From IMG/VR virus record IMGVR_UViG_3300021256_000006, positions 32,001 to 96,000 of that record: a DNA stretch of 64,000 bases. One strand, written 5' to 3'. Within the stretch, counting starts at the first letter, position 1. Each line of letters begins with the position of its first letter. Shown in pieces: positions 1 to 61,244 of this stretch. Position numbers and translations under genes: made by a program. Below the pieces are notes generated by a model. It worked only from the letters and a program-made list of their open reading frames with translations, did not search any database and was not told the origin of the DNA. The DNA is from a virus.

Positions 1-54
1 TTCCATTCCTCATTCCTCATTCCTAATCCCAAATTCAATTAAATTTTTACGACT
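1..54 (+). repeat. Intergenic tandem-repeat tract (TTCCTMA heptamers); looks like the right arm of an element-X copy cut by the window edge
   Basis: ttccattcctcattcctcattcctaat is readable directly; same units as 1079-1110. Confidence 0.6.
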
Positions 55-1017
55 ATGACACAAGAAGAAATTATCCGCATCGCAACACAGGCAGCTATTG
101 CCGCAGTAAAAGCAATGGGCACAACAGCGCCACAAGTGAATAACTCTGCATCATCAAGGAGCGACAAGCCAAAGGCGCTCCCTGATGCAAAGGCGAATGC
201 CATTGGAAGCATCGTGGCAGAAGCCGCTACGGAAGCCGCCAAAAATGGCAAGAGAGTAGAGGCGCCCAAGGGCACCGCTATATTCATGGAGTATAGCGAG
301 AAACAGTTTGCCCTATGGGGTGACACGAAGGAAGTCCGCAATACGCTCAAAGAGTATGGAGCGAAAAAATGGGGCATCATCTGGGGGTTCATCCCCGATG
401 GCTGCAAAGAGGAAAACAAGGCCGAAGGCTGGTTCTTCCCCAAGAAAAACCTCGAAGAACACGGTGGAAAGACTGCACTCTTCAAGGCACTCAAAGCTCT
501 CGGAGTAAAAGTTACAGAGGGCGCAAGCCTAAAGGAGAAGACGGAGGCACACCGTGCCGCCATCGCCAAGGATAAGGCAGAGGAAGCTCCCAAGTCTGCT
601 CCCAAGACAAAGGATAGCAAACCAAAGGAGAGCAAGCCCAAGACAGAGCCAAAGCCAAAGGTCATCCCTATCAGGGTTGACGAGTATGAAGGCATCGCCA
701 TTGGAACGAAGAAACAAGAGAGTGGTGTCACATTCCAAGCCTATCCCGATGAGCCAGATGTGTTCTTCCGTGAGGACAAAATCTACCTCTGTATTGGGGA
801 GATAGGCGGGGAAAGCGCATTCCTCTTTGTCGGCAAGAAGGTTGATGGAGCGGTACCACCGCATATCAGACAGACTGCCGAGGACGGCATCCTCGTCGCA
901 ATCTCGAAGGGGATTGTCACCAAGGTTCATCAGTATATTATTGACGCATTCAAGGCTCTCGACGACAAATCCGGTTACAACTGGCTCGTCAAAGAGGGCT
1001 ATGTGAAAGCAGCGTGA
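55..1017 (+). CDS. Hypothetical protein with Lys/Pro/Glu-rich central linker
   Basis: 320-aa ORF with ATG in ACTATG context; linker KPKESKPKTEPKPK; no family recognised; ends in -KAA. Confidence 0.6.
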   Translation: MTQEEIIRIATQAAIAAVKAMGTTAPQVNNSASSRSDKPKALPDAKANAIGSIVAEAATEAAKNGKRVEAPKGTAIFMEYSEKQFALWGDTKEVRNTLKEYGAKKWGIIWGFIPDGCKEENKAEGWFFPKKNLEEHGGKTALFKALKALGVKVTEGASLKEKTEAHRAAIAKDKAEEAPKSAPKTKDSKPKESKPKTEPKPKVIPIRVDEYEGIAIGTKKQESGVTFQAYPDEPDVFFREDKIYLCIGEIGGESAFLFVGKKVDGAVPPHIRQTAEDGILVAISKGIVTKVHQYIIDAFKALDDKSGYNWLVKEGYVKAA

Positions 1018-1023
1018 AACTAA

Positions 1024-1129
1024 ATGAGGAGTTAGGAATTAGGAATTAGGAATTGATACCATGCCATCAGCATAACATTCCATTCCTCATTCCTCATTCC
1101 AAATTCCTAATTGTATCAACTCCTAATTC
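1024..1129 (+). repeat. Element X copy 1: large imperfect hairpin (AGGAATT-repeat arm, ~24-nt conserved core, AATTCCT-repeat arm, TTGTATCAAC)
   Basis: Arms are reverse-complementary heptamer repeats; core gataccatgccatcagcataacat; 1055-1109 matches the reverse complement of 14637-14691 at 53/55 positions. Confidence 0.75.
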
Positions 1130-1140
1130 TTTCAACGATT

Positions 1141-2178
1141 ATGGCTAAAAAGAAAAAACAATTTATCTCCGATTATAGCGCAAAGCGCATCGGAGACCTC
1201 ATAGAGGAAGTATTGAATAATGCGGAAAAGGTGCGGTGGCAAAAGCCGTGGCTTGATGTGGCAAGTGTGGAAACGCCTTGCCGCAACATTGATAGACCAG
1301 ACCCTTATCAAGGGGTTAATGCCGGACTCCTTCAGCTCGTAATGAGCGTGAAAGGCTACCGCACTCCATTGTTTGTGACTGGGGATAAAGCTCGTGACAT
1401 GGGGCTTTCTATCAAGAAGCAAGACAATGGCGACCGAGAGGAAGCATGGCCCGTGTTCAAGTGGCTCCATCTTATCTACGACAAAGATGGCAACCGCATC
1501 ACCTACGAGCAGTATTGCGACCTCGACGAAGAAGAGCAGCAGCAATGCCGAGAGCGTTGGTCACTCCGTGGCTATCTCGTCTATAACATTGACCAGACCA
1601 CTATGAAGGAAGATCTGCCAAACACTTATGCTAAATTCCTGGCCCTCTATCCTGAGGAAAAGGAGGTGCGCACCATGAAGGCAGAGGAAGACACCGTTGA
1701 CGAGGCATTGGACTATGTGCTTTCCACAGAGGGTGCATGGAGATGCCCAATTCATCATTCAATTAGCCACAAGGCTTATTATTCACCTGCCGAGGATGGC
1801 ATTCACCTCCCAATGAGGGAGCAGTTCAAGACAAACTCCGCTTATTATGGCGTGGCGCTTCATGAGATGGCGCACAGCACCAAGGGCGAGAAGAACATGA
1901 AGCGTGACTATGGGAGCAAAGGTTTTGGCTCCGAGGGCTATGCCCTTGAGGAATTGGTGGCAGAGTTCACTTCCGCATTCGTCGGACTTGACCGAGGTCA
2001 CACAAAGACTATCGACCAAGAGCACATCGCCTATGTGCAGAGTTGGCGCAAAGCCATCAAGAAGCACGATGTGGTAAGTACCATTGTTGACGACCTGATG
2101 AAAGCCGTCAATTACGAGATACGCATACTCCGAGAGACAGATACGATGCTTGCCGCTCCAAGCGCAGAGGCAGCATGA
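1141..2178 (+). CDS. ArdC-like antirestriction protein (ssDNA-binding N-domain plus zincin metallopeptidase C-domain)
   Basis: ORF 1111-2178 trimmed to the first ATG (GATTATGGCT). N-terminal motifs QKPW and PYQGVNAGLL; C-terminal HEMAHS (HExxH) and EELVAEF, as in the ArdC/DUF1738 family. Ends in -EAA. Confidence 0.7.
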   Translation: MAKKKKQFISDYSAKRIGDLIEEVLNNAEKVRWQKPWLDVASVETPCRNIDRPDPYQGVNAGLLQLVMSVKGYRTPLFVTGDKARDMGLSIKKQDNGDREEAWPVFKWLHLIYDKDGNRITYEQYCDLDEEEQQQCRERWSLRGYLVYNIDQTTMKEDLPNTYAKFLALYPEEKEVRTMKAEEDTVDEALDYVLSTEGAWRCPIHHSISHKAYYSPAEDGIHLPMREQFKTNSAYYGVALHEMAHSTKGEKNMKRDYGSKGFGSEGYALEELVAEFTSAFVGLDRGHTKTIDQEHIAYVQSWRKAIKKHDVVSTIVDDLMKAVNYEIRILRETDTMLAAPSAEAA

Positions 2179-2182
2179 TGCG

Positions 2183-2299
2183 GAGTTAGGAATTAGGAGT
2201 TAGGAATTAGGAATGAAATGTCATACCATTGGCAGAGTATCAATTCCTCATTCCTCATTCCTCATTCCTAATTCTATCAACATTCCTCATTCCTAATTC
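2183..2299 (+). repeat. Element X copy 2 (core flipped relative to copy 1)
   Basis: gagttaggaattaggagttaggaattaggaat / core gaaatgtcataccattggcagagtatc / aattcctcattcctcattcctcattcctaatt, then CTATCAAC. Confidence 0.7.
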
Positions 2300-2309
2300 T
2301 TAAACAACT

Positions 2310-2816
2310 ATGGCAAATCTTATGAACGGCACACTCTCTGCCATACTCAAGCAATCGCTTGACGAGAGAGCAAAAACGGATGCAGACTTTGCATCCAAGT
2401 ATAAAACAAAAAAAATCGAAGACTGCGTGTCTGCCATCTATGCTGCATTGGAAAGCATGGCAAGGAAAGCGGTCAGCGGTTCTGGTGGTGCTGCCGCCTG
2501 TGGTAGTGACGACCTGCTTGTCTCTGCCGCTGTCCATTGGTATGATGAGGAAAAACCCACGACCGAAAGCGTCGTGGCAATCCTCGAAGGTGGTACGGAA
2601 ATCATCAAGCAGAACAAACCGACGAAGCAAGCCAAGACTGCCGACGCCAAACCAACCGCAAAGCCCGCACCAACTGCCAAGCCAGCCGCAAAGCCAGCAC
2701 CGACACCAAAGCCAACTCCCAAGCCGATTCCGAAGATGGAGATTGTCAAGCCATCTGCAGCACCTATGACAGACGATGATGACGATGACGACGATGACAT
2801 TGATTTGTTCAGCTAA
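2310..2816 (+). CDS. PcfK-like protein (AcrIIA9-family candidate) with (A/T)KP-repeat linker and poly-Asp tail
   Basis: N-terminal AKTDADFASKY..IEDC..AAVHWYDEE matches PcfK-like proteins as I recall them. Sits immediately upstream of a PcfJ-like gene. C-terminus is AKPTAKPAPTAKPAAKPAPTPKPTPKP followed by DDDDDDDDD. Confidence 0.6.
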   Translation: MANLMNGTLSAILKQSLDERAKTDADFASKYKTKKIEDCVSAIYAALESMARKAVSGSGGAAACGSDDLLVSAAVHWYDEEKPTTESVVAILEGGTEIIKQNKPTKQAKTADAKPTAKPAPTAKPAAKPAPTPKPTPKPIPKMEIVKPSAAPMTDDDDDDDDDIDLFS

Positions 2817-2884
2817 TCGTCAGGGTAGGGGGACGCAGAGAATATTCCCCCTATCCACCAAGTATTATAAAAAATAGGAGGACT

Positions 2885-3067
2885 ATGGACAAGATTTGTA
2901 AAGGATGCCACTACAATCGTGGTTATTGGTGCAACCGATTGGTTATTCCTGGAGGAATGGGAATGCACGACAGAGTTGCAAGTGATTATCTGAAAGACAA
3001 TAAATGCAATTATTTCGAGGCAGGTCATTCAGAACCAACAACCAAACCTAATTTTGAAAATTCATAA
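2885..3067 (+). CDS. Small Cys-rich hypothetical protein (60 aa)
   Basis: ORF with CKGC...WC...KC pattern that fits the gap between neighbouring genes; no family recognised. Confidence 0.35.
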   Translation: MDKICKGCHYNRGYWCNRLVIPGGMGMHDRVASDYLKDNKCNYFEAGHSEPTTKPNFENS

Positions 3068-3082
3068 TTGGAGGACAAAACT

Positions 3083-4441
3083 ATGACGGAAATCGAACAC
3101 ATCAACGCATTGTTGGAGAAAAACACTCCGACATTTGGCGAAAGCGATATGATGGGTATCGCTTGTGACATTGAAGCAGATTTGGATTGGAACTATTATC
3201 CGGATAATGACGCAGAGGTGGCCATTGCCACTCATGCAGACGACTATCAAATAATAACCAACCATGTCATGTATATGTTACAGAAAGTCCACTGGAAAGA
3301 CCTTGACGGTGTGGAGCATGATGGAGAATATGACGAATGGGAAGACTATTATAGCTCGCTTAGTGATGTTGAGCGAGATAATTACGACAACGGATACGAT
3401 GACTTGTTCGATTATTATATGAAAGTCGAAGACGAGGGGGCGTATCGTCAATATTGGTACAATGTCAAGACTGGTGCTTGCTTTGTTCGTGACAGGCTTC
3501 TCGATCATCCAAAATATGGTACTATCAATAATGTCGAAGGAGAGTGGACGCCTCTGAAGGCTATCAAGCCATGCGAGGCGATAGATGAAGCCTATTACAA
3601 GGTTGATTTCAGCATCCATCCTCTTCTCGAAGAGAGAGGCTATGAATGTTTTTCCGCTCAGGAATACAACGATGCCACCGACCCAACAAACGACCATATC
3701 ATTGAGAATCGGATGCAGTTCTTCGATGGCATGAGAACAAATCCACAGTTGTGTTCGGTCATCCGTTACGGAGGATTGAAGATGCTTGGGCTTGTGTCTG
3801 GCGAACACCGTGAGCAATACATTACTGCCGTTAAGATTGCCAACCGACATCGCTATATGCCAGCCGACAAAGGAATGTGGATGGATTACCTTCACGACCT
3901 CATCGAATTGGGCAAAGACCTTCACAATCCATTTTATGTATGCCCCGAAGATTTGAGGGCTGCACATGAGAAATACCACCGCCTCTATGTTAGAGAAATG
4001 GAGAAGAGAGAAAAGGAAAGACGATTGCAGGAACTTATTGCCCGTTCCAAGCCCTATGCACAACGCATTGCTCCATTCCTTTCTCTTGCCTGGCACACCG
4101 ACCAGTATGCCGTGTTTGTCTGCCCATCGGTGGAAGATATGGTGGAGGAAGGACAGAAGATGCACCACTGCGTAGGCATTATGGGCTACGACAAGAAGCC
4201 CGACTCCCTCATCCTCTTCTGCCGCACTCCACAAGGAGAGCGTATCAGCACGATTGAGTACAGCATCAGTCGTGGCAAGGTGTTGCAAAACCGAGCCGCC
4301 TGCAACAAAGTTCCCCTCTATCTTGACGAGGTGAACAAGATGCTTGAAAAGGATGCAGAGCGCATCAGGTCTTGCAAACTTATCAGCATCAACAAAAACA
4401 AAGTTCAACCAGCAGCCGAGGCAATCGCCTTGGCTGCATAA
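3083..4441 (+). CDS. PcfJ-like protein
   Basis: ORF 3068 (TTG) trimmed to ATG 3083. C-terminal GKDLHNPFYVCPEDLRAAHEKY ... EEGQKMHHCVG ... KPDSLILF resembles the Bacteroides PcfJ-like family. Ends in -ALAA. Confidence 0.65.
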   Translation: MTEIEHINALLEKNTPTFGESDMMGIACDIEADLDWNYYPDNDAEVAIATHADDYQIITNHVMYMLQKVHWKDLDGVEHDGEYDEWEDYYSSLSDVERDNYDNGYDDLFDYYMKVEDEGAYRQYWYNVKTGACFVRDRLLDHPKYGTINNVEGEWTPLKAIKPCEAIDEAYYKVDFSIHPLLEERGYECFSAQEYNDATDPTNDHIIENRMQFFDGMRTNPQLCSVIRYGGLKMLGLVSGEHREQYITAVKIANRHRYMPADKGMWMDYLHDLIELGKDLHNPFYVCPEDLRAAHEKYHRLYVREMEKREKERRLQELIARSKPYAQRIAPFLSLAWHTDQYAVFVCPSVEDMVEEGQKMHHCVGIMGYDKKPDSLILFCRTPQGERISTIEYSISRGKVLQNRAACNKVPLYLDEVNKMLEKDAERIRSCKLISINKNKVQPAAEAIALAA

Positions 4442-4452
4442 TACTACGAATT

Positions 4453-4944
4453 ATGGCACACAGCAAAATTTTTCAAGTTAGCGAAGCTCCTATCGACAAG
4501 GACGACTTCAAAAGCTCGTATGATTATTGCGATAACCATCAAGAATTTGCCGACTGGATTGGCGATAACGTGGAAGATGAAGTAGAACGAAAAAAGTATA
4601 TTGAGTATCTCGTCAAAGAATTGGATGGCACATTCTCCATGGGTGAGAATGACACATTGGTGTTCAATGGTAAAAAGCCGCTCAACAAATTCTTGGAGGC
4701 ATGGGCAAACAAACTACAAGAACTTGCTAAAAGCATAACGAAAGATACAATCACAAGCAGCTCTGCCCTTAGCGACCTTCGCCATGTGGCAAGCGACACT
4801 CACAAGAACTCCGACTATAGATTTGACATTGAGAGCTGGACGGGTTATGCCGCACCTCTCTGCGAATTTATTGACTTTATATCAAATAGGTTAAAGAAAG
4901 GCGACAAAGTTTACATCGGAGCAATTATTGATTTTCACTATTAA
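4453..4944 (+). CDS. Hypothetical protein (163 aa)
   Basis: ORF 4372-4944 trimmed to ATG 4453 (AATTATGGCA context), just after the upstream stop. Confidence 0.5.
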   Translation: MAHSKIFQVSEAPIDKDDFKSSYDYCDNHQEFADWIGDNVEDEVERKKYIEYLVKELDGTFSMGENDTLVFNGKKPLNKFLEAWANKLQELAKSITKDTITSSSALSDLRHVASDTHKNSDYRFDIESWTGYAAPLCEFIDFISNRLKKGDKVYIGAIIDFHY

Positions 4945-4956
4945 AAAACAACAACT

Positions 4957-5118
4957 ATGGCAATACAAATTTCAATTTACAACCTGCGAACAAAGCAAAA
5001 GGATATTCGTTATATATATGACGAATCAAAAAATGTCGAGATTTGGAACGCTCAAAGAATACTCACAAATGAGACTTCGTGCAAAGGCTTTGATATGGTA
5101 TTAACTGAAATTGTATAA
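4957..5118 (+). CDS. Small hypothetical protein (53 aa)
   Basis: Not in the ORF track (<60 aa). ACAACTATGGCAA start context identical to neighbouring genes; open to TAA at 5116. Confidence 0.3.
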   Translation: MAIQISIYNLRTKQKDIRYIYDESKNVEIWNAQRILTNETSCKGFDMVLTEIV

Positions 5119-5168
5119 AGTATGGCAATACGTTATAAGAACCTGATAAGAGATAAGGAGGAACAGTT

Positions 5169-5705
5169 ATGGATAAAGAAATGAGAAAAAGACTCGAAAA
5201 GTTTGGTCGAGTTGAGGAAGATTCAAAAACTTGGGTGCATCCTTGGGAAACCTATTGGAGATTGTATTGCAAGAAACATCACGGCTTACTTGTAAAGATT
5301 CTTAGCAAGATGTACCCAGACTACACATTTTCACTGGGTGAGAGCCATATTTGCGGAACGATTTTCCAAGTAATCATAATAAACAAAAAAGGAATGACTA
5401 TGGCAAAGAAAAAAATATGGCTTGTCACACAAGAAAGCAATGTGGACGGAGAAATAACATTCAATGTGACGCCTTGCAAGGATTTAGGTACAGCCATCCG
5501 AACAATGAAGAAGGAAATAGACACAATCCTGGACGAGTCGCAAAAGTACAAGGATGCCCGCAGATGGATGGAAGGTGACGACACACTCAACTACGACGAT
5601 TGCCCCTTTGTATGGGAAAATGAAAACCATGACTCGTGGTATCTTAAAGTCATTAACGATGACTACTACGAAGACTTACGAATTGAAGAAAAGGAAATAA
5701 TTTAG
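5169..5705 (+). CDS. Hypothetical protein (178 aa; alternative start at 5400)
   Basis: ORF track; internal GACTATGGCAAAG context at 5397-5408 would give a 101-aa product. Confidence 0.5.
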   Translation: MDKEMRKRLEKFGRVEEDSKTWVHPWETYWRLYCKKHHGLLVKILSKMYPDYTFSLGESHICGTIFQVIIINKKGMTMAKKKIWLVTQESNVDGEITFNVTPCKDLGTAIRTMKKEIDTILDESQKYKDARRWMEGDDTLNYDDCPFVWENENHDSWYLKVINDDYYEDLRIEEKEII

Positions 5706-5717
5706 GAGGACAACACC

Positions 5718-6197
5718 ATGCTAATAGATTTAATTCTCAATCGCAAAGACGGTCAGCCCTACAACGCAAAGAAGTTCTATGATGCCGTAACTTCTTACCT
5801 CGACACTTTCCACTGCTACATCGGATTGGCAAGGGCGCTCGACGGTGGCGAAGAAGAGGACGTTATCACCGAACTCTGCGACTACATCAAAAGTGGAAAC
5901 TACAACCTCAACATCTGCGACTACATCAGCAGCGTGAAGTGGTTGGAAGACGACGAGCCAGAAAAGACAGAACAGCGTTCCGTTTGGCTACGCATTGGAG
6001 TGGTGGTAACAGGAACAGCGGAAGAAATCGAAGCCTTGTTCCAAGAAGAGGGTGCAGATAAAGCACTCCAAAAATTGCTTGACAACAAGCAATATGAGTT
6101 TGATGGCGACACTTACATCCCAGAATATTGTGTCGAAACCTACAATGAGGAATATCACACCGACCATGAAGTCGGTGAATACGAATTTAATGTATAA
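5718..6197 (+). CDS. Hypothetical acidic protein (159 aa)
   Basis: ORF track; tight spacing with neighbours; no family recognised. Confidence 0.5.
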   Translation: MLIDLILNRKDGQPYNAKKFYDAVTSYLDTFHCYIGLARALDGGEEEDVITELCDYIKSGNYNLNICDYISSVKWLEDDEPEKTEQRSVWLRIGVVVTGTAEEIEALFQEEGADKALQKLLDNKQYEFDGDTYIPEYCVETYNEEYHTDHEVGEYEFNV

Positions 6198-6253
6198 CTA
6201 AAAAAATATAACCAATAGGAACAGAAATAACAGTAAAGAAAACAACATTCGAG

Positions 6254-6469
6254 GTGGAGGGTTGCAAAGAGCCCTGCATTGAAGTAAGCAATGGCTATTG
6301 CATGGTAAGAATCAGCAAGTGCCACAGGCTGATAGGGCGGAGCTCGCTCTATATAAGAGAGTATCTGGACGGCTTCTACAATGGAGAAGACGAGTTTACG
6401 GGCAACTTTGACTCGCTATCCGATGAAGATGCAATCAGGTTGGCCAGGCAATACTCAGCATATCTATAA
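6254..6469 (+). CDS. Hypothetical small protein (GTG start; ATG alternative at 6302)
   Basis: 71-aa ORF in the + strand operon; start uncertain. Confidence 0.35.
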   Translation: MEGCKEPCIEVSNGYCMVRISKCHRLIGRSSLYIREYLDGFYNGEDEFTGNFDSLSDEDAIRLARQYSAYL

Positions 6470-6471
6470 TC

Positions 6472-6738
6472 ATGTTCCATTTAAACACCGACAAAACAAT
6501 GAAGAAACATATCAAGAACGCAATTCAATACGTGAAAGAAAATCACGAATGGAGCGAAGCGTGTGAGCAACACGCATTGGAAATCATTGACAAATGCAGA
6601 TGCCCTATTTCTCAGGCCTCCGACGAAATCACCTATGAAATTCAGCAGTTGATGAATGACTACGGCGATGATCATGACTTGCCTGAAGGCTGGTGGATGG
6701 AAGATATAGACGAGGATGAAATATTTATGAGAATATAA
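6472..6738 (+). CDS. Hypothetical acidic protein (88 aa)
   Basis: ORF track; starts 3 nt after the previous stop; next gene starts 2 nt after its stop. Confidence 0.45.
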
Positions 6739-6739
6739 T

Positions 6740-7354
6740 ATGGAAAAGACAATTATTCAGCAGTTCAATGAACTGAAAGAGAAGCACCCAACGGCAATCC
6801 TCCTGTTCCGGTGTGGCGACTTCTACGTAACCTACGAGGATGATGCTCAAATCTGTGCAAACGTGTTGGGCATCACCCTTACCAAACGAACAAGCGACGG
6901 CACTCGCACGGCAGGTTTTCCTTACCATGCTCTTGACACATATCTTCCCAAATTGGTACGATACGTGAATCAACCCGAAAGCATTATGAAACGTATCGCT
7001 ATCTGTGACCAGTTGGAAGACCCACAGACCCAAAAACTTGTGAAGCGAGGCAGTAACGAATTAACCAAACAAGGAGGACTAACAATGAAACTTTTCCACG
7101 ATGTAGGCATTAACGAGCCTTGCCGTGACATCAAAGTCAACGGCAGAAAAATCATGGCAAACGTGTGGGGAGGGCAGACGGAAGTCACCCTCACCACATG
7201 GAGCGAAATCCGACGACTGGGGTTCAAGAAAAGAGAGCGAGCCTTCGGCAACCTTAACGACGGAACTCCCGCACTCTACTTTCAAGCATGGGACGAACAA
7301 AACAATAACCACTGGTTTCTCACCACAGAGAAACTTGAAGAGCTGGAGGACTGA
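6740..7354 (+). CDS. Orphan MutS domain-I (mismatch-binding N-terminal domain) protein with an unknown C-terminal domain
   Basis: [32 protein letters not shown]...LGITLTKR...[16 protein letters not shown]...[10 protein letters not shown] aligns by eye to E. coli MutS residues ~12-115. No connector, core or ATPase domains present. Confidence 0.75.
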
Positions 7355-7510
7355 CAATGACCTACAAACGATTTCACCGCATCATGAATGGTAGGAGTTA
7401 CACCATCACAACCCACCAGCCTGACGTGCCGGACACACTCCGCATATCGAGAGACAAAATGATTGTGTTTAACTATATCAAATAAATTCATCATCTAAAT
7501 CATCACAACT

Positions 7511-8611
7511 ATGGAAACTATGACAGCAAACGGAGTGACTTACTACCAAGATTGGGAAAAGTCAGAGGGTCACATCTATATGGTAAAGCCCAAGACCATC
7601 AATCGCTACATAAAAATTAAAGAAGAGCATCCACGAGAAGAAGCCTACGGTGTGTTTTTTGCTTTCAGCAAGGAACAGTTTCAGGAAGGCTACAAATCGC
7701 TGGTGCGACGTGGTTACATCAAGGATGGCGACAAGATAACACCCGGTGCTATGGGCATCTATGGCACCGCTGATGAAATAGCACGATTCTTCGATTTCTA
7801 CAATGAACGAGACAAGCGCATCGCTAAGGAGTGCGACCCACAAGAGGTGTATTTCTACGAGTGGAACAACCACGAATGTATGTTTGGCGATGATGACGAT
7901 GTGGTGAAACTCATTGCAGACTACTTCGGCAAGGAAGCAGCCCACAAAATTCATCGGGTGGGAGGTGGAAGGGACATCAACATTCTTGTTCCAATTACCG
8001 AACGAGACCACCACCTGCAAGCCCATGAGCATGACATCCTGCTTCTCTCACGGCTGAAGTATGACTGCGAAGGATTCCTCAGCGAAGGTGACTGCCGACA
8101 CGCCAGACCCAGTGACCTGTGGGCAAAGGATTTGAAAATGCAGATAAAAAAGATGCGAGAGTTGTTAGGAGGACTGCCCGATGACATCAAGGGAGAATCG
8201 CCAGTTACCGAGTCTGACATTGACGACTACGAGAAGAGGATGGTTGACGAACTCTGCAAGGAATTTTCCAAACCCAAATACAATCCTGCACCTGATACAA
8301 CATTTGACGAGTACCACAACGCAGAAATCAATGACGTAGATTTATATTACCAAGACGATGACGGGAAATGGCAACGACCTACCAATGTGTGGTTTTCCAA
8401 TGATTCCAGACGCTGGCATCTCAATGATGCCAACACACACGGCAGAGCATTCACATCCTACCTTGGCAAGCATGGCACCACGTTGGCTCCAGTCTATTAC
8501 ATGAGTTGGGGGTCATTGACGAGAAGGCCCTACGTCAACCAGAGATTCTGCAACGTCACCGCCCGCTACGACCATGAATCCGAACGACTTTACGATTTTT
8601 ACAGAGAATAG
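7511..8611 (+). CDS. Hypothetical protein (366 aa)
   Basis: ORF track; CAACTATGGAA start context; no family recognised. Confidence 0.55.
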   Translation: METMTANGVTYYQDWEKSEGHIYMVKPKTINRYIKIKEEHPREEAYGVFFAFSKEQFQEGYKSLVRRGYIKDGDKITPGAMGIYGTADEIARFFDFYNERDKRIAKECDPQEVYFYEWNNHECMFGDDDDVVKLIADYFGKEAAHKIHRVGGGRDINILVPITERDHHLQAHEHDILLLSRLKYDCEGFLSEGDCRHARPSDLWAKDLKMQIKKMRELLGGLPDDIKGESPVTESDIDDYEKRMVDELCKEFSKPKYNPAPDTTFDEYHNAEINDVDLYYQDDDGKWQRPTNVWFSNDSRRWHLNDANTHGRAFTSYLGKHGTTLAPVYYMSWGSLTRRPYVNQRFCNVTARYDHESERLYDFYRE

Positions 8612-8638
8612 AAACAACAATTCAAATTCATCACAACT

Positions 8639-9529: not shown

Positions 9530-9606
9530 CCCCCAGGGTGTGTGAGTGTAGCAAATATCTCACACATCCACTAATTTCAAATTCATCATCTAAATCATCA
9601 ACAATT

Positions 9607-54199: not shown

Positions 54200-54327
54200 A
54201 GGAAGAATGAGAAATGCAACAAAGAAGTGAGGATGGACTACCGCCCACAAACCGAGGAGAAACCTACAAAACAGCAAGGTAATTGCTGTCAAGAAACTGC
54301 ACCACCCTTCTGCCCCACCCCTGCGTC

Positions 54328-54344
54328 CAGCGGTTTTCCCGCTG
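54328..54344 (+). repeat. GC hairpin family copy
   Basis: cctgcgtc CAGCGG-TTTTC-CCGCTG. Confidence 0.85.
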
Positions 54345-54410
54345 GCCCTCTCTCCTCCCTCTCTCCTCCCTCTCGTCTTCGTTTTCGTTTTCGTTTCTTC
54401 CCCCTGCGCT

Positions 54411-54427
54411 CAACGGTTTACCCGTTG
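54411..54427 (+). repeat. GC hairpin family copy (compensated variant)
   Basis: cctgcgct CAACGG-TTTAC-CCGTTG. Confidence 0.85.
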
Positions 54428-54546
54428 ACCCAACTCCCAATCACCGCATCCTCACACCTTCGCATTATCACATCTTCACATTTTAGTATTTCTACATTCT
54501 TACATCATTATATTATCAATCTTTCAAATTATCAAATTATTAAATT

Positions 54547-55053: not shown

Positions 55054-55075
55054 CCACACATCTCCTACTTGCGTA

Positions 55076-55092
55076 TGACGGTTTACCCGTCA
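55076..55092 (+). repeat. GC hairpin family copy (compensated variant)
   Basis: cttgcgta TGACGG-TTTAC-CCGTCA. Confidence 0.8.
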
Positions 55093-55159
55093 CCCCAGCA
55101 CCCACACACTTGCCGTGTAATTCGGGCACCGACTGAGCATGCCAGCCGGTGCCCTTCCA

Positions 55160-55440
55160 TTATCAAATGATTACATCATCGCATCGTCACATCATCGCAT
55201 TTCCGCATTTCCCCGTTTCCGCATCTTCACATTTCCACATTTTCCCATCTTCCCCCCCCACCCTTTTTTTTATCTCCGTTTTCGCCTTCTCCCTGCGTCC
55301 AGCGGTTTTCCCGCTGGCTCTCCCTCCTCCACCTCCCCGTCTCCCCCTCCTTCGTCTTCGTCCCCTCATCCCTCATCCCTCATCCCTCATACATCTTCCC
55401 TCTTCCCCCCCCCCTCCTCTCTCCCCATCTTCACATTTTC
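55160..55440 (+). repeat. Composite polypyrimidine module (CGCATTTC/CACATTTC ~8-mers, hairpin, CCCTCAT heptamers)
   Basis: ~8-mer repeats 55170-55250; hairpin 55300-55316; CCCTCAT units 55363-55390, sharing ~35 nt with 27203-27235. Confidence 0.8.
55300..55316 (+). repeat. GC hairpin family copy
   Basis: cctgcgtc CAGCGG-TTTTC-CCGCTG. Confidence 0.85.
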
Positions 55441-55445
55441 AAATG

Positions 55446-55459
55446 ATGTTATATAACAT
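55446..55459. promoter_or_regulatory. Perfect 14-bp palindrome ATGTTATATAACAT (candidate operator)
   Basis: Self-complementary; 48 nt upstream of the parA -7 box; paralogous to 15044-15057. Confidence 0.45.
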
Positions 55460-55493
55460 ATAAAAATGTAATCACATTTTCACATTTTCACAC

Positions 55494-55501
55494 TAACTTT
55501 G
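55494..55501 (+). promoter_or_regulatory. -7 promoter box TAACTTTG (parA promoter)
   Basis: Exact TAnnTTTG, 74 nt upstream of ATG 55575; preceded by CACATTTT x2 (55473-55488). Confidence 0.5.
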
Positions 55502-55574
55502 CACCCAGTGAGAAAAATACTGCTGCATCGCATAGCAGCCATTCATCAATAATCATTATAAACAACATCAAATT

Positions 55575-56336
55575 ATGGCAAAAACTATCGCAATCCTCAA
55601 CTTCAAGGGTGGGGTAGGGAAGACGACCACAGCCATCAACCTGGCCGCAGCCCTGCATAACCACAAAAAGAAAGTCCTTGTAATCGACATTGACTTCCAG
55701 TGTAACGCATCTTCCACATTAGGGTACAGACCCAAGGACGGAGACAGCATCTACGAGTTGTTTACGGTCAAAGACATCAAGTCTCTTCCTCTCTATGAAC
55801 GGGAAAAAGGTTTTGACTTTATCCCTTCGTCCATGAACATGAAGAACTTCAATGAAATCATGTCTTCACGGAACCGACGTGAGTACATCCTAAAGAAGCT
55901 CGTCGATATGGTGCGTGACAATTATGATTTCATCTTTATTGATTGCCCGCCTAACGGTGGCCTCTTGAATACAAATGCAATGTGTGCAGCGGACTCTATC
56001 ATCATCCCTCTTGATTGTGAGCCGTATTCCCTGCAGGGAGTTATCACCATCTTGGATGAAATCAAATCCATACAGGAGGATGAGGTGAATCCTGACATCA
56101 ATATCCTTGGTTTTCTCCTTACTCGCTACGACTCTGTGCTGTCTATCCATAAGGAAGCAGCCAGCATGATGCGTGACCGCTATCCCGGGAAAGTCTTTAA
56201 CGCAAAGATACGAAAGAACACAGCGCTCTCCAAAGCATCAGCACAGGGAAAGACCATCTTCGAGTATGCACCTGACTCTGCCGGAGCCGCCGATTACGAC
56301 CAACTGGCCCGCGAAATCCTCAAAGCAAAGAAATAA
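55575..56336 (+). CDS. parA: ParA/Soj-family partition ATPase
   Basis: Deviant Walker A LNFKGGVGKTTTAINLA; IFIDCPP; 253 aa. Confidence 0.9.
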   Translation: MAKTIAILNFKGGVGKTTTAINLAAALHNHKKKVLVIDIDFQCNASSTLGYRPKDGDSIYELFTVKDIKSLPLYEREKGFDFIPSSMNMKNFNEIMSSRNRREYILKKLVDMVRDNYDFIFIDCPPNGGLLNTNAMCAADSIIIPLDCEPYSLQGVITILDEIKSIQEDEVNPDINILGFLLTRYDSVLSIHKEAASMMRDRYPGKVFNAKIRKNTALSKASAQGKTIFEYAPDSAGAADYDQLAREILKAKK

Positions 56337-56354
56337 CATCTTTCACCAAGCGTC

Positions 56355-56370
56355 CATCGGTTCCCCGATG
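56355..56370 (+). repeat. GC hairpin family copy (compensated variant) between parA and its partner
   Basis: aagcgtc CATCGG-TTCC-CCGATG. Confidence 0.75.
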
Positions 56371-56391
56371 GGACAAATAAAAATACTAATT

Positions 56392-56718
56392 ATGGCAACA
56401 AAGAAAAAACAAGTCCTGACTACAGGATTCCTCGTAGAAACAGAGGAAGATAAATATACGGAAAGAAACAAACAGAAGAAACTTGAAGCACAGAAGGGTG
56501 GGGGAGTGAACAGCCCAAAAGGGAAGGGCTCCCGATGGAGAGAAACACAACGCCCTCATGCCAAGTCTATCCATTTTGACGAGGCGCTGCATCAAAAAAT
56601 AAACTTACTGAAGCACCTCACCAACAAGCCTGTCGAGGATATTATCTACGACATCATCCACGAATGGTTTGACACCAACTTTGAAAATAAGAAAAAGGAA
56701 CTGCTCGGTCAACTATGA
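56392..56718 (+). CDS. Small basic protein with a C-terminal ribbon-helix-helix-like domain (ParG-type centromere-binding candidate)
   Basis: ORF 56173 trimmed to ATG 56392 (AATTATGGCAACA); KSIHFDEALHQKINLLKHLTNKPVEDIIYDIIHEWF; position after parA. Confidence 0.45.
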   Translation: MATKKKQVLTTGFLVETEEDKYTERNKQKKLEAQKGGGVNSPKGKGSRWRETQRPHAKSIHFDEALHQKINLLKHLTNKPVEDIIYDIIHEWFDTNFENKKKELLGQL

Positions 56719-56726
56719 CCGGGCAG
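56701..56726 (+). terminator. Hairpin spanning the stop codon of the par operon
   Basis: CTGCTCGGTC-aactat-GACCGGGCAG (10 bp with one G-U pair). Confidence 0.35.
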
Positions 56727-56736
56727 TTCCCATACT

Positions 56737-56835
56737 AACACATTTCCACATTTTCACATTTTTACACTTTCCCATTTCCGTATCTCCCCATCCCCCCGTT
56801 TTCGTCTTCGTTTTCGTTTTCGTTTTCGTTCTCTC
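56737..56835 (+). repeat. CACATTTY ~8-mers followed by six CGTYTT hexamers
   Basis: cacatttccacattttcacattttt (56740-56765) and hexamers 56797-56832. Confidence 0.8.
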
Positions 56836-56844
56836 ACCCGCGCC

Positions 56845-56861
56845 CAACGGTTTACCCGTTG
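56845..56861 (+). repeat. GC hairpin family copy (compensated variant)
   Basis: cccgcgcc CAACGG-TTTAC-CCGTTG. Confidence 0.85.
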
Positions 56862-57097: not shown

Positions 57098-57475
57098 TCA
57101 CACCTTTTCCGTGATTAAGGTCCTGCGCTCCACAAAGTAGCACTCCACACTCATGAGCTTGCCTTTCTTGTTTCGCTGATGGTTTCGGTACCGTATCTCC
57201 GTTCCGTCAAGAAAGAGTTGCATATGCCTCTTGTCCTGTGTGATGAATTTCCAAAAGGTGTCAAGATATATCCAGTCTTCGCCCTTGGGCTTATCTCCCT
57301 CTATCAGCTGTCTCGTCACCTCTTGCACAGCTTGAATGGCACCTAAATAGTAGGCGCCATAATAAGTAACCATCTGCGCATTCAGTGGCAGGTCATGGCT
57401 CGTCGCAAAACGTCTTGCCTGGATGTCACGAGCCATCTCAATAATTCTATTCTCTTCTTCTGTTGTCATTGTCAA
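57098..57475 (-). CDS. Hypothetical protein (125 aa)
   Basis: ORF track; no family recognised. Confidence 0.5.
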   Translation of the reverse strand: MTMTTEEENRIIEMARDIQARRFATSHDLPLNAQMVTYYGAYYLGAIQAVQEVTRQLIEGDKPKGEDWIYLDTFWKFITQDKRHMQLFLDGTEIRYRNHQRNKKGKLMSVECYFVERRTLITEKV

Positions 57476-57478
57476 TTG

Positions 57479-57510
57479 TCAACGTTTGTAGCAGCGAGAG
57501 CAGTGTCAAG
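57479..57510 (+). repeat. 32-nt direct repeat, copy 1
   Basis: tcaacgtttgtagcagcgagagcagTgtcaag. Confidence 0.85.
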
Positions 57511-57559
57511 TTTACTTGAACTATGCCGAGTCGCGCCCAAACCTCAGCGAAGCTAATTC

Positions 57560-57591
57560 TCAACGTTTGTAGCAGCGAGAGCAGAGTCAAG
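57560..57591 (+). repeat. 32-nt direct repeat, copy 2 (31/32 identical)
   Basis: tcaacgtttgtagcagcgagagcagAgtcaag; 49-nt unique spacer between the copies. Confidence 0.85.
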
Positions 57592-57660
57592 CCAACTGTC
57601 AATTGTCAACTGTCAACTGTCAATTGAATAATTCCTCATTCCTCATTCCTAATTCCTAAT
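57592..57660 (+). repeat. TCAAYTG heptamers then TTCCTMA heptamers
   Basis: ccaactgtcaattgtcaactgtcaactgtcaattg ... ttcctcattcctcattcctaattcctaa. Confidence 0.85.
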
Positions 57661-57663
57661 TAA

Positions 57664-59191: not shown

Positions 59192-59264
59192 AATTTCTAA
59201 TTCTCAATTGTCAACTGTCAATTAACTAAGATTCTCTAATTCTTGCTAATTCTTGATAAATTTG

Positions 59265-59867
59265 CTACCGCTTGAAAAGCGATGGCTCTGCCTGATATTC
59301 GGCCAATTTCTTTTTGAGGTTCCATACACGCATTCCGAGCAATCGCAACAGCTTCAGCTCTTCGTCGGTGTTCAGCTTGTAGTCGTGCATCAGTTGTGCC
59401 GGTACATTAAGACTACATGAGCCGATGTGGGTGTATCTTGCTCTCGATTCTTCTGAGTCGGCATAGATAATGAGTCCGCAGCGGTTCGGGTTGTGTTCCG
59501 TGTACCCCGTCACCTCCGACCGCTCGTAGTAGATGAAGCCAGGTTTGCACTTGTAGGCGCCTTCGTAGAGCCAATGGAACACGCGCTCGCCGATGCTCAG
59601 CGGCACGGCATAGTAGAAGCGCGACAGCTTGGGGTCGTCGTGCGTGTGGCTCTTCTTGAAGTCGGCCATAAAGTCTGACCATGTGCGCTTGATTTCTATC
59701 TCCACGAGCCGCTTGGTCTTATTCAGCACCAGAAGGTCGGCTTCGTGGTTCAGGAATCCCCAGTTGCAGTTGGGAACCACGATGTTCTGCCGGATATAGT
59801 ACGGCGCATCGGGATAGCCCGTGATGATTGTCTCTATCTGCTCTATCGTGAGGGTTGTTTCCTTCAT
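59265..59867 (-). CDS. PD-(D/E)xK-type nuclease fold candidate (MmcB-like)
   Basis: HEADLLVLNKTKRLVEIEIKRTWSDF fits a D...E-x-K motif; assignment from memory, weak. Confidence 0.4.
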   Translation of the reverse strand: MKETTLTIEQIETIITGYPDAPYYIRQNIVVPNCNWGFLNHEADLLVLNKTKRLVEIEIKRTWSDFMADFKKSHTHDDPKLSRFYYAVPLSIGERVFHWLYEGAYKCKPGFIYYERSEVTGYTEHNPNRCGLIIYADSEESRARYTHIGSCSLNVPAQLMHDYKLNTDEELKLLRLLGMRVWNLKKKLAEYQAEPSLFKR

Positions 59868-60061
59868 AGTTCCTTCTCTACCGTGATACTTATTGTTCCG
59901 TTGTTTGGTAAGCGGTCAATCTCGTTGGTTAGCATTGTGACAAACGTTCCGATTGATTCGCCAAAGCCTGTTGCAAGCTCGTTGGCGCACGTCCTGTCAT
60001 GCTTATGCAATGATACGATGTGCGAAGACTTGTCGAAATAAAATGTTACCGTCTTCTTCAT
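59864..60061 (-). CDS. Hypothetical protein (65 aa)
   Basis: ORF track; ATGA-type overlap with the downstream gene. Confidence 0.4.
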   Translation of the reverse strand: MKKTVTFYFDKSSHIVSLHKHDRTCANELATGFGESIGTFVTMLTNEIDRLPNNGTISITVEKEL

Positions 60062-60145
60062 AATTCCTAATTCTCCAATTCTCTAATTCTTGATAGACTT
60101 CTCTCTCATAGTTCCTTCTAATTATCAATTGTCAATTATCAACTG

Positions 60146-60505
60146 TCAATTATCCAAGTACTTGTTCATTGCCACCGTCTGCCCTTTCGATTCTTCGGGG
60201 TTTTCATCGTAAATCTCATATCCGTGTCGCTGATACCAGGGAATGAGGAACGTCCCCCTTCTCGCACCCAGCGCAACTTGTTTCAGTCCTAACTTCTTTG
60301 CCTTTTCCTCGGCAAACATCAGCATGACGTTGCCGCGCCCCTGCTGTCGTACCGATTCATGCACAAGCAATGACTGTATAGTACCGCAGTCGTTGCGCTC
60401 TTCATTATCTTCGATGACAAGTTCTATCATGCTCTTGCCATCGTCGGCTATCATGGTGTAACTCTTACCCCACCACCATTCGTTTTCGTGAGTTATTATC
60501 TTCAT
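60146..60505 (-). CDS. GNAT-family N-acetyltransferase
   Basis: LLVHESVRQQGRGNVMLMFAEEKAKKLG (acetyl-CoA binding Q/RxxGxG/A) ... WYQRHGYE. Confidence 0.7.
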   Translation of the reverse strand: MKIITHENEWWWGKSYTMIADDGKSMIELVIEDNEERNDCGTIQSLLVHESVRQQGRGNVMLMFAEEKAKKLGLKQVALGARRGTFLIPWYQRHGYEIYDENPEESKGQTVAMNKYLDN

Positions 60506-60768
60506 GACGGTCTTTCTTCAATATATACGTTAGTGAAGACAAACGTGATGCTGCCAATACGACATTGCCCGTCTATGATACTCACACCATCGAAGAACTT
60601 GCTCAGCTTGTCTACAATCTCATGTCGTTCATACTTTCGTTTGTCGAGCATAAATGTTGCCGTGTCGTTCTCATTCTCGGTCAACATCGAAGCGTTATCC
60701 GCTTCTCCCGTGTTCGTTTCAAACATGCCCTTGATTGCATCAATGGCTTCTCTCCTTGTAATTCTCAT
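60502..60768 (-). CDS. Hypothetical protein (88 aa)
   Basis: ORF track; AAGGAACTATG start module. Confidence 0.45.
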   Translation of the reverse strand: MRITRREAIDAIKGMFETNTGEADNASMLTENENDTATFMLDKRKYERHEIVDKLSKFFDGVSIIDGQCRIGSITFVFTNVYIEERPS

Positions 60769-60810
60769 AGTTCCTTGTAATTTGATTCTCCAATTCTCAA
60801 TAAGTTATTC

Positions 60811-60975
60811 CTAAGCATACCACTTGTCAATCTTTTCCCATTCAGCCACCACGTCTTGATAGCCAAGCTCGGTAAGCAAATCTGTGAGTACGCCGTCTGC
60901 ATCTACATGTGCTGCTTCAATATCAAAGTTTGACTGACATTGGCGCAACTTTATAATAGCTTCTTCTCTTGTCAT
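60811..60975 (-). CDS. Small hypothetical protein (54 aa)
   Basis: Not in the ORF track; AAGGAACTATG start module at 60975; open to TAG at 60811. Confidence 0.35.
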   Translation of the reverse strand: MTREEAIIKLRQCQSNFDIEAAHVDADGVLTDLLTELGYQDVVAEWEKIDKWYA

Positions 60976-61055
60976 AGTTCCTTAATTTATTCAATTCTCA
61001 ATTGTAAATTCCCAATTGTCAATTAACTAAGATTCTCCAATTCTTGATAGATTTT

Positions 61056-61244
61056 CTACCGCTGCATCTGGTCGATAGCCTCCTTTATTTCGTCCTTGTT
61101 GGCATCACGATATTCAAACATGTGTGCCATCAGTTCCATGAACTCAACACGATTGAGGAACACAAGCAACTGCATGTTGTCGGTGACGATGTTCAAAGCG
61201 ATGCGGTCTTTGTGTATCTTTGTGATTGATGATGTTGCTCTCAT
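61056..61244 (-). CDS. Hypothetical protein (62 aa)
   Basis: ORF track; AAAGAACTATG start module. Confidence 0.4.
   Translation of the reverse strand: MRATSSITKIHKDRIALNIVTDNMQLLVFLNRVEFMELMAHMFEYRDANKDEIKEAIDQMQR

Follow-up and report, generated by a model that had tools for sequence, protein, structure and literature searches.

The present study deals with short repeats in a stretch of viral DNA of 64,000 nucleotides (nt), which is the whole of the DNA analysed and is called the window below (IMG/VR record IMGVR_UViG_3300021256_000006, positions 32,001 to 96,000). The window comes from a tailed phage of the gut or rumen and has genes for a tape-measure protein of 2246 amino acids (aa) and a DarB-like methylase-helicase; ArdC-like, PcfJ-like and PcfK-like proteins, a ParA ATPase, a holin-like protein and an M15 endolysin are also encoded. 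Between the genes lie tandem arrays of 6–8-nt units and a GC hairpin, here named H, and three longer elements, X1 to X3, carry arrays on both sides of a core. A preliminary description of this DNA had proposed that the units are drawn from a small vocabulary and occur in recurring orders together with the GC hairpin, and this was indeed seen.

The window was compared with several related contigs. L005 is an independent assembly, 97% identical to the window, which ends at 34571. L004 and L009 are 96–97% identical to each other, and L001 and L002 are separate assemblies that are 99.98% identical across arrays. The relatives that bear H (L004, L009, L001 and L008) have only 40–50% protein identity to the window. 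For several proteins the nearest relative is L006 (77% and 60% identity).

Tandem arrays and hairpin H

Arrays were defined with Tandem Repeats Finder as repeats of period 6–8 with at least 3 copies and a score of at least 40. The window holds 29 of them against 0 in 30 dinucleotide-preserving shuffles. They cover 15% of the intergenic bases as compared to 0.14% of the coding bases, which is an intergenic enrichment of about 100-fold. Period 7 accounts for the majority of all arrays of period 5–9 in the window and likewise in the relatives. The copy number has its mode at 4.0–5.0 in the window, and the same mode is seen for 484 arrays from other loci, a set picked in part by a 4-unit pattern. 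The arrays are clustered in four regions, at 1–2.3, 14.6–14.8, 27–37.8 and 54.2–61.1 kilobases (kb). The gaps at 2.8–14.6, 15–20.3 and 38.9–54.2 kb are ordinary, A/T-rich or promoter-like, and the divergent promoter region at 33128–33271 contains no array. The earlier statement that almost every gap between genes holds such repeats was too strong, as arrays occur in 17 of the 44 gaps of 40 nt or more (39%). A role of the arrays as promoters was ruled out; A/T-rich promoter-like gaps with TAnnTTTG carry no arrays.

All arrays listed previously were recovered by Tandem Repeats Finder, exactly or a few bases off. TTCCTMA arrays lie at 29934–30007, 34576–34622 and 57629–57661, and TCAACTR arrays at 29191–29243 (7.6 copies), 29898–29934, 30748–30785 and 57593–57623. 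CGTYTT hexamers are found at 27137–27156, 31451–31485, 31537–31559, 37639–37673, 54373–54396 and 56797–56830, CCCTCAT arrays at 27184–27256 and 55363–55407, and AATTCTC-like arrays at 59195–59267, 60061–60090 and 60991–61024. CACATTTY octamers occupy 55158–55254, 55472–55492 and 56739–56777.

Repeat tracts are translated into spurious open reading frames (ORFs), as had been noted (for example 27029–27358, 27036–27494, 55139–55456 and 55149–55463). Spurious ORFs and apparent gene fusions arise because G-free tracts lack two of the three stop codons, and the 1696-aa DarB-like ORF is a case in which annotation should be made with caution. A similar warning holds for assembly, since short-read assemblies break at arrays. 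The contigs of relatives tend to end in them, L005 at 34571 being one, and it could be argued from this that the repeats are an artefact of assembly or sequencing at low-complexity DNA. We give this almost no credence. The same arrays and hairpins are present in assemblies from other samples (L001/L002, and L005, whose independent origin excludes an assembly artefact), and the array types are also found in finished genomes and megabase-scale contigs. The consistent grammar of the repeats, the covariation of the hairpin and the strand rules also speak against an artefact.

Hairpin H is about 25 nt long and consists of a 5' YTGCG, a stem of 6–8 base pairs (bp), an apex CGG-TTYYC-CCG and a closing stem. 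A 23-nt pattern search found 16 copies in the window, 16/16 on the + strand, where 0 were expected, and a looser apex scan raised the number to 20 true copies, all on the + strand. In the relatives H occurs on the equivalent strand only, with 11 copies in L004, 8 in L009, 3 clear copies among 5 apex matches in L001 and 1 in L008; the apex scan found none in L006. The apex and the 5' YTGCG are kept across relatives, and the lower stem exists in compensatory variants (CAGCGG/CCGCTG, CAACGG/CCGTTG, TGGCGG/CCGCCA, CGTCGG/CCGACG and TGACGG/CCGTCA). In an alignment of 31 copies 85% of the cells are paired and 46 cells are changed on both sides, with four stem positions showing 9–13 double-sided changes each. 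None of 500 shuffles scored as high, and slid registers gave 2–17 such changes as compared to 46.

H is also found in frame within ORFs, whether these run on the + or the - strand, and its own DNA strand is the same in each case. In the DarB-like ORF, which is on the + strand, H (CAGCGG-TTCCC-CCGCTG) and an ATTCCTM array of 4.7 copies (10773–10880, +) are translated, and the resulting linker, which joins the methylase part to the helicase part, is variable in the homologue P0019. Another copy lies in the 3' part of the same ORF (14139–14161, +). It was also observed that the ORF reads through what is an intergenic-type module of hairpin, ATTCCTM array and a CACTATG start-like context at about 10884, so that there may be one fused protein or two genes; G-free DNA admits only TAA stops, which would account for an apparent read-through. 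The sole homologue found for the linker is on a contig carrying RteC, DUF3945 and Toprim genes. In the window the H copy at 29257–29279 supplies the C-terminal tail of 29233–29895, a minus-strand gene that runs through it, and one copy lies at the end of the Cro-like helix-turn-helix (HTH) gene (18399–18421, +). The minus-strand gene 8644–9870 of L004 has five apex matches inside, and two adjacent H copies in it encode ESVGRTDGRKE-like insertions that are missing in 4 orthologues. Because H is maintained as a structure, is fixed to one strand and is indifferent to the direction of transcription, it seems to belong to the DNA level, probably as single-stranded DNA (ssDNA), and not to the level of mRNA.

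The order of hairpins and arrays along the window, read on the + strand, is as follows. At the left end (1–54) three copies of CATTCCT (4–24) precede the gene 55–1017. Two H copies (14919–14941 and 14963–14985) make up the segment 14919–14985. Downstream of the tape-measure gene (20147–20215) a CT tract with 27 nt of pure pyrimidine is followed by H at 20173–20195 and by a second CT tract. The segment 27021–27254, between two minus-strand genes, has H at 27096–27118, a CT tract, the CGTYTT hexamers at 27137–27156 and CCCTCAT/CCCTCTT units at 27184–27256. At 29175–29279 the TCAACTR array of 7.6 copies (29191–29243) stands before the H copy at 29257–29279. Two further segments lie between minus-strand genes: 29896–30007, with TCAACTA (5.3 copies) and then TTCCTMA/CTCCTMA (8–10 copies) in a G-free run of 135 nt, and 30694–30817, with TGTCTAA (2.6 copies), CAACTRT (5.4) and AATTCCT (4.9). 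At 31443–31603 a module of CGTTTT hexamers plus H is present twice (H at 31490–31512 and 31564–31586). Upstream of a 987-aa plus-strand gene (34496–34635) H at 34508–34530 is followed by TCAACTN and TTCCTMA units, and the segment 37600–37760 has H at 37610–37632, CGTYTT (5.8 copies), a CT tract, H at 37691–37713 and a G-free A/C leader.

On the right-hand side, the segment 54310–54552 (+) has H at 54322–54344, CCCTCTCTCCT in 2.6 copies, TCGTTT in 4 copies, H at 54405–54427, CAYMTTCA octamers and ATTATCAA octamers. At 57470–57663 (+), between minus-strand genes, TTGTCAA (3 copies) and a direct repeat of about 31 nt present twice are accompanied by CAACTGT (4.4 copies) and TAATTCC (4.7 copies). 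The two copies of this direct repeat (CAACGTTTGTAGCAGCGAGAGCAG[T/A]GTCAAG; 57479–57594) are about 80 nt apart and lie between a PAPS-reductase-like gene and the minus-strand gene that follows, beside the TCAACTG and TAATTCC arrays. Four short gaps between minus-strand genes within 59192–61055 (+) hold AATTCTC/TCAATTG-type arrays (59195–59267, 60061–60154, 60769–60810 and 60991–61024).

The largest repeat region (55054–55574, +) is upstream of parA. It begins with an H-like hairpin at 55070–55092 and CACATTTY octamers at 55158–55254, followed by H at 55294–55316, CCCTCAT in 6.4 copies at 55363–55407, TCACATTT in 2.6 copies at 55472–55492 and a TAnnTTTG promoter-like site. After parA there is an H-like hairpin with a 4-nt loop (CATCGG-TTCC-CCGATG; 56337–56391, +). 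The segment downstream of the 108-aa ORF that follows parA (56719–56861, +) holds CACATTTT octamers at 56739–56777, CGTTTT in 5.7 copies at 56797–56830 and H at 56839–56861.

CACATTTY octamers thus occur at four places within about 1.1 kb of parA and the 108-aa ORF, three upstream (54447–54481, 55158–55254 and 55472–55492) and one downstream (56739–56777). Such a distribution would suit multi-copy protein-binding sites, operator- or centromere-like, at which a partition adaptor or a protein silencing a plasmid-like prophage globally might bind. In type Ib partition loci, iterated sites are typical on either side. As in the omega/ParG heptad operators and type Ib centromeres, direct repeats of 7–8 bp flank a small parA operon here (octamers around 55575–56718). 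CI-like (19089–19781) and Cro-like (18201–18404) HTH genes are present, and the paired heptamer arrays of four to five units in Geobacter were annotated as putative sites of a global regulator (PMC2700814). However, the sites of omega/ParG and type Ib systems are at few promoters, while other flavours are spread here across structural and early operons; no RHH protein was recognised, and the 108-aa ORF has no recognisable DNA-binding domain and no Pfam match. Double-stranded sites would have no reason to keep one strand polarity, relatives have different units at corresponding junctions, one sister phage lacks them altogether, and the same heptamers are found in unrelated genomes that, among the matches listed, share no proteins with the phage. 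We consider binding sites quite improbable as a general explanation, and this reading may apply to the CACATTTY flavour only.

Strand polarity and turnover among relatives

The arrays keep to one strand whatever the direction of the genes, as had been claimed. Only 3 of 33 intergenic arrays are purine-rich, with 0 of 17 in the minus-gene regions, and the exceptions are, again as described, the left arms of element X (1023–1054, 2182–2214 and 14638–14665). Seventeen runs of 45 nt or more are free of G, and 1 is free of C. The original term for these arrays, pyrimidine-rich, is loose, and G-poor is the accurate word, because TCAACTR arrays are only 54–59% pyrimidine. Similarly, the tracts 27100–27260 and 55260–55440 are pyrimidine-rich (86% each) but not near-pure over more than 100 nt, their longest pure runs being 33 and 29 nt. 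Pure pyrimidine runs of 20–33 nt are found at 20147, 27119, 27180, 27237, 54346 and 55394. H-DNA calls for a homopurine/homopyrimidine mirror repeat with arms of about 15 bp or more. The proposed tendency to form it could hold for two or three CT tracts at most, and TCAACTR, AATTCTC and the octamers are not homopurine/homopyrimidine.

GC skew at third codon positions (GC3 skew) was expressed on the + strand for plus and minus genes apart. In the window it is -0.11 for plus genes and -0.06 for minus genes, and all four gene blocks are negative. The corresponding values are -0.32 and -0.53 in L001, -0.32 and -0.29 in L004, -0.31 and -0.33 in L009, -0.17 and -0.64 in L008, and -0.09 and -0.13 in L006. 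C exceeds G at synonymous sites in both gene orientations, and since the skew is negative for genes of either direction, this clade-wide strand asymmetry is independent of transcription. The strand of the arrays is no signal in its own right, agreeing in sign with the clade-wide skew and being its local extreme.

Comparison of close strains, which had been proposed as a check, revealed that both copy number and module number differ. The module of hexamers plus H is present twice in the window and once in L005 (an indel of 82 bp), one C-run differs in length between the two, and an array has 5 changes in 40 nt as compared to about 3% in coding sequence. H modules of 55 nt and about 20 nt in L004 are missing from L009, and the 55-nt indel falls within a heptamer array, with CCCAAC microhomology at its borders. 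Changes of this kind are what slippage or unequal recombination would leave in unstable, dispensable DNA. Hairpins and arrays also co-vary from one genome to another. L006 has neither arrays nor H, its junctions are compact, and its intergenic DNA amounts to 3% as compared to about 11% in the window. At the junction after the 407-aa gene, arrays are present in the window, L001, L004, L009 and L008, and their units differ. CCCTAAA/CTCTAAA units, the complement of the plant-type telomere repeat TTTAGGG, were observed at L004:8175–8218, L009:8483–8529 and L001:3681–3746. The likeness to telomere repeats is probably a coincidence, and it gives regular GGG runs on the opposite strand.

It had also been asked whether breakpoints coincide with the arrays. 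The 210-aa gene (30810–31442) lies beside the tape-measure gene in L004, L006 and L009; in the window it is displaced and flanked by arrays on both sides, and this is a single example of rearrangement. A displaced gene between two arrays is what would be expected if the repeats were recombination linkers, that is, dispersed same-orientation homology aiding module exchange between co-infecting relatives, or if they formed non-B DNA such as triplex, i-motif, G-quadruplex (G4) or slipped structures. Mosaicism mediated by linkers would require just such repeats, in the same orientation and at the borders of genes. The CT tracts are pure over up to 33 nt and 86–90% pyrimidine over 126–181 nt, the CCC runs of CCCTCAT arrays give regular GGG runs on the complementary strand, and G4 and i-motif were shown in vitro for GGGAATC-type heptamer arrays (PMC4692102). 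However, most flavours (TCAACTR, AATTCTC, CACATTTY and CGTYTT) are not mirror repeats of the homopurine/homopyrimidine type, nor are they repeats with runs of G or C. The units differ between relatives and would therefore provide little homology between genomes, and the rearrangement seen is a single one. This explanation is, in our view, highly improbable.

Element X, matching arrays elsewhere and the origin of the repeats

Three elements have purine-rich and pyrimidine-rich arms around a core of about 25 nt, which occurs in either orientation between them. X1 (1018–1140, +) consists of AGGAATT units at 1023–1054, the core of about 25 nt and CATTCCT units at 1081–1136. X2 (2179–2309, +) has GGAGTTA/GGAATTA units at 2182–2214, a core inverted with respect to X1 and ATTCCTC units at 2243–2299. 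In X3 (14629–14790, +) AGGAATG units at 14638–14665 are followed by the reverse complement of the X1 core and by ATTCCTA/ACTCCTC units at 14711–14774. Each of the three folds as one long hairpin in which 6-bp helices alternate with single mismatches at regular intervals, with z values from -5.2 to -6.3 (X1, -33 kcal/mol, z = -6.1; X2, -42.9 kcal/mol, z = -6.3; X3, z = -5.2).

Matching heptamers are widespread. Among species-representative genomes, at least 120 contigs, which belong to many phyla, contain exact (ATTCCTM)4, as compared to about 0.03 chance matches estimated from database size and pattern length. In IMG/VR this pattern occurs in 30 contigs, and (TCAACTR)4 in 17. Among the matches listed, the bacterial (ATTCCTM)4 loci share no proteins with the window and do not carry hairpin H or most other flavours, and the arrays at unrelated loci mostly have 4.4–4.9 copies. 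Where arrays are paired, the arrangement is (AGGAATK) in about 4.6 copies, a variable core and (MATTCCT) in about 4.6 copies, with the purine arm first in 49 cases as compared to 1 among the matches listed. The cores of such pairs are often GC hairpins with UUCG or GNRA loops. Examples of these heptamer hairpins are L047:988–1075, L077:3613–3711, L131:338–570 and L156:990–1203, from the set L010–L159. The literature searched contains no description of purine-arm-first (AGGAATK)n-core-(MATTCCT)n hairpins. At unrelated loci the polarity of arrays follows the local skew weakly (Spearman 0.27, same sign in 33 of 50), in a comparison that is confounded by gene orientation.

Hairpins of this kind raise the question of RNA punctuation, in which H and X would be partial terminators, attenuators, RNase III-type processing sites or 3'-end stabilisers, with the arrays as arms or spacers. 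The elements sit between cistrons, as a rule starting no more than a few bases from a stop codon, and avoid the divergent promoter 33128–33271. The long regular helices of X1–X3 would fit such a role, and the pure pyrimidine tract after H on the + strand would give a weak RNA:DNA hybrid, as in a terminator. In unrelated genomes the purine-first order is what a bidirectional terminator would show, the cores are often terminator-like, and the ORFs flanking heptamer pairs are mostly convergent or co-directional. On the other hand, the elements stay on one DNA strand whatever the direction of transcription, so that plus operons carry a UUYYC loop with pyrimidine flanks and minus operons a GRRAA loop with purine flanks. 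H is also present within coding regions of both orientations, and a close sister phage with the same operons has no such elements. Intrinsic terminators require a GC hairpin with a direct U-run, whereas what comes after H is a mixture of C and T on the + strand and GACGCAGG on the - strand, with no direct U-run; canonical hairpin plus T-run terminators are found elsewhere in the window, at about 14870–14905 and about 20215–20250. RNA punctuation is thus unlikely, though it deserves some weight.

The host of the phage bears on how such DNA is tolerated. Start codons have the context A(-3)-Y-T-ATG-G, a motif like that of Shine and Dalgarno (SD) precedes only 8 of 64 genes, and promoter-like TAnnTTTG sites are present, because of which the host is most likely a Bacteroidia-type bacterium, as far as sequence features can indicate. 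Ribosomes of Bacteroidia make no use of SD, and initiation is tuned by mRNA structure (PMC6847099, PMC7797042). The arrays were also considered as tandem SD or anti-SD mimics, the purine version having AGGA or GAGG every 7 nt; this was set aside, as the host type is SD-blind (PMC7797042) and plus-strand genes carry the complement. In folds of array spacers as RNA only the GC hairpins fold, and the arrays have no strong structure because they are G-free or C-free. The mean folding energy from -50 to +15 is -3.4 kcal/mol for starts preceded by arrays, -7.3 for other starts and -12.2 for random windows (p = 0.04).

With about even confidence we hold that the repeats are fast-evolving, largely dispensable simple-sequence and REP-like DNA, oriented by the strand asymmetry of the clade and tolerated in an SD-independent host. 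H would be a REP-like hairpin of one strand only, its stem kept by compensation, which has been multiplied to at least 20 sites including tolerant parts of genes. Beside the hairpins, arrays of 6–8-nt units would grow, shrink and change their unit by replication slippage and unequal recombination. Hairpins reportedly stimulate strand-biased slippage between flanking direct repeats, work that is said to be that of Trinh and Sinden in 1991 and of Viguera et al. in 2001. The constant G-poor polarity would most likely stem from asymmetric replication in one direction, such that the + strand would serve each time as the same kind of template. The arrays would be tolerated, and perhaps mildly beneficial, as SD-blind ribosomes need only an unstructured leader; they could be tolerated either way round because a three-letter array, G-free or C-free, gives such a leader in both orientations.

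Several observations weigh against this account of dispensable, strand-oriented DNA. Skew by itself does not suffice, since the skew of L006 is similar to that of the window and yet L006 has no arrays; the window itself, which among the genomes with arrays is the least skewed, has the largest number of them. The mode and direction of replication are themselves presumed, from what may be only part of the genome. That the apex and the 5' motif of H are conserved suggests that some factor recognises them, and no HUH, RAYT, Y1_Tnp or other transposase was found in a Pfam/PHROGs scan that covered about 50 distinct ORFs of the window, the other ORFs, the rest of the genome and the host being outside it. 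The recurrence of arrays at one junction in diverged relatives could mean that an array is selected there. Finally, identical (AGGAATK)n in unrelated genomes, the narrow size mode of 4.4–4.9 and the near-absolute purine-arm-first polarity are regularities in size and polarity that neutral slippage does not predict, and they point to selection on the sequence or to horizontal spread. They leave some likelihood for a role of X-type elements at the RNA level or in another sequence-specific way.

A bolder pair of claims may also be made. H and the arrays could be a strand-specific system at the ssDNA level, and the X hairpins, separately, an undescribed pan-bacterial and viral class. H may be recognised on the lagging-strand template or the displaced strand by a replication, priming or HUH-type factor, spreading through that factor and marking one strand of the genome. 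Members of the X class may be heptamer-array hairpins with the purine arm first, acting as punctuation of transcription or RNA in both directions; if so, the class would give the long-known heptamer repeats of bacteria a mechanism. We regard this bolder reading as unlikely.

Tandem heptanucleotide arrays have been noted in bacteria since 1990, and we know of no accepted function or origin for them. The preliminary description knew of no described phage with this organisation, and a precedent does exist in the intergenic heptamer arrays of bacteria, although a literature search on the exact repeat sequences found nothing. Intergenic heptanucleotide arrays occur in cyanobacteria, Beggiatoaceae and some Bacteroidetes, including TAACTGA repeats (PMC4679880). 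The GGGAATC/GGGGAYT arrays of Xanthomonas and Nostoc prefer four units and lie between aligned ORFs, the version that follows the stop codon being G-rich and the one ahead of the start C-rich (PMC4692102), and those of Geobacter have four to five units and are mostly paired (PMC2700814). Such arrays are the commonest long simple-sequence repeat (LSSR) in prokaryotes, for which polymerase slippage was proposed, as far as the work of Mrazek 2007 is reported in PMC4679880 and PMC4692102. The arrays of the window have the defining features of this LSSR/STRR class, and the repeats look more like its counterpart in a phage than like a novel code for gene control. They are head-to-tail units, of the 5–11 nt that define the class, in runs beyond chance, mostly of 7 nt and, it seems, typically in about 4–5 copies, strongly intergenic, between co-oriented genes and outside divergent promoter regions; they often form inverted pairs, mix flavours within one spacer, change by unit-step indels between strains and are occasionally found in ORFs. 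What differs is that they are in a tailed phage and not in a bacterial chromosome, are tied to a dedicated hairpin family and keep to one strand across 64 kb regardless of gene direction. The Xanthomonas/Nostoc rule of a G-rich version after the stop is followed here by the three X elements only.

The hairpin has its own parallels. Like REP/BIME sequences, H is a short GC-rich imperfect palindrome with a conserved 5' motif in many dispersed copies, forms mosaics with short motifs, lies after genes in operons and is maintained as a structure (46 double-sided changes, with 20 copies in the window). REP elements, in contrast, have a GTAG motif and a RAYT (Y1 HUH) transposase, while H has YTGCG and no RAYT was found among the about 50 ORFs scanned; REP are extragenic and occur in both orientations, alternating in BIMEs, whereas H has one orientation and is also inside ORFs. 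Rickettsia palindromic elements are selfish DNA placed in frame in protein-coding genes. They resemble H as a palindromic family translated in frame in tolerant regions of conserved proteins, and differ in being 100–150 bp long and confined to Rickettsia, where H modules are 25–55 nt, strand-fixed and mostly intergenic. The stoperators of cluster A mycobacteriophages are asymmetric sites in short intergenic regions, oriented with transcription; the orientation of H and the arrays follows the DNA strand and not transcription. The tandem repeats of Borgs (PMC9879509) are likewise pervasive, fast-evolving and independently arising in a mobile genome, both intergenic and genic, the genic copies being disordered linkers. 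Borg units are longer and more varied, Borgs are archaeal, and neither a companion hairpin nor a transcription-independent strand rule is reported for them (PMC9879509).

The phage clade is a small comparative system in which arrays are abundant in some members, absent in a sister and changing between 97%-identical strains, and in which they are tied to a covarying single-strand hairpin and a strong transcription-independent skew. It could show whether heptamer repeats are by-products of replication, selfish elements or signals of expression.

Gene content and neighbouring observations

The window contains no tRNA genes or Rfam families that could be found. GenBank phages gave no match in a megablast of 20 kb or a tblastn of the 987-aa protein, and in IMG/VR neither a relative of the 407-aa protein nor an exact copy of H was present. 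The 407-aa protein has 18 homologues, all from ENA and Logan metagenomes, with bovine ones among them. A cyanobacterial origin, which the STRR likeness had brought up, was dropped; the proteins resemble those of phages, and the genes have start contexts and promoters of the Bacteroidia type.

A domain scan identified the Cro-like HTH gene (18201–18404) and the CI-like HTH gene (19089–19781), which are on opposite strands. Together with the small ParA and its 108-aa partner ORF (55575–56718), this pair suggests a temperate, plasmid-like prophage lifestyle. The left 14.6 kb (55–14628) resembles the anti-restriction leading region of a Bacteroidales conjugative element. It encodes an ArdC-like protein with a zincin peptidase (1141–2178), PcfK-like (2310–2816) and PcfJ-like (3068–4441) proteins, an LPD11 polyvalent-protein domain (7511–8611) and the 1696-aa DarB-like methylase-helicase ORF (9538–14628, +). 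A stand-alone protein of 204 aa in the same part (6740–7354, +) has MutS domain I, the mismatch-binding domain (Pfam E = 2e-25). Judged from its domain content, a protein with this domain and without the rest of MutS could disturb host mismatch repair and could bear on the instability of the repeats.

A likely diversity-generating retroelement (DGR) lies at 45129–48941. Its 629-aa target gene ends in a GC-rich region, after which a template-repeat-like, AAC-codon-rich stretch of 384 nt of non-coding DNA (47019–47402) is followed by a small ORF, and the reverse transcriptase (47613–48941) adjoins the GC-rich template-like region. One H copy (47571–47593, +) lies directly upstream of the reverse-transcriptase gene; no evidence was found for a role of the DGR in the spread of H, and the hairpins directly downstream of the target gene (47019 onward) differ from it. 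To the left of the divergent promoter, in the tail region, the window and L006 both have a 639-aa gene and four other small genes, all of which are missing from L004 and L009.

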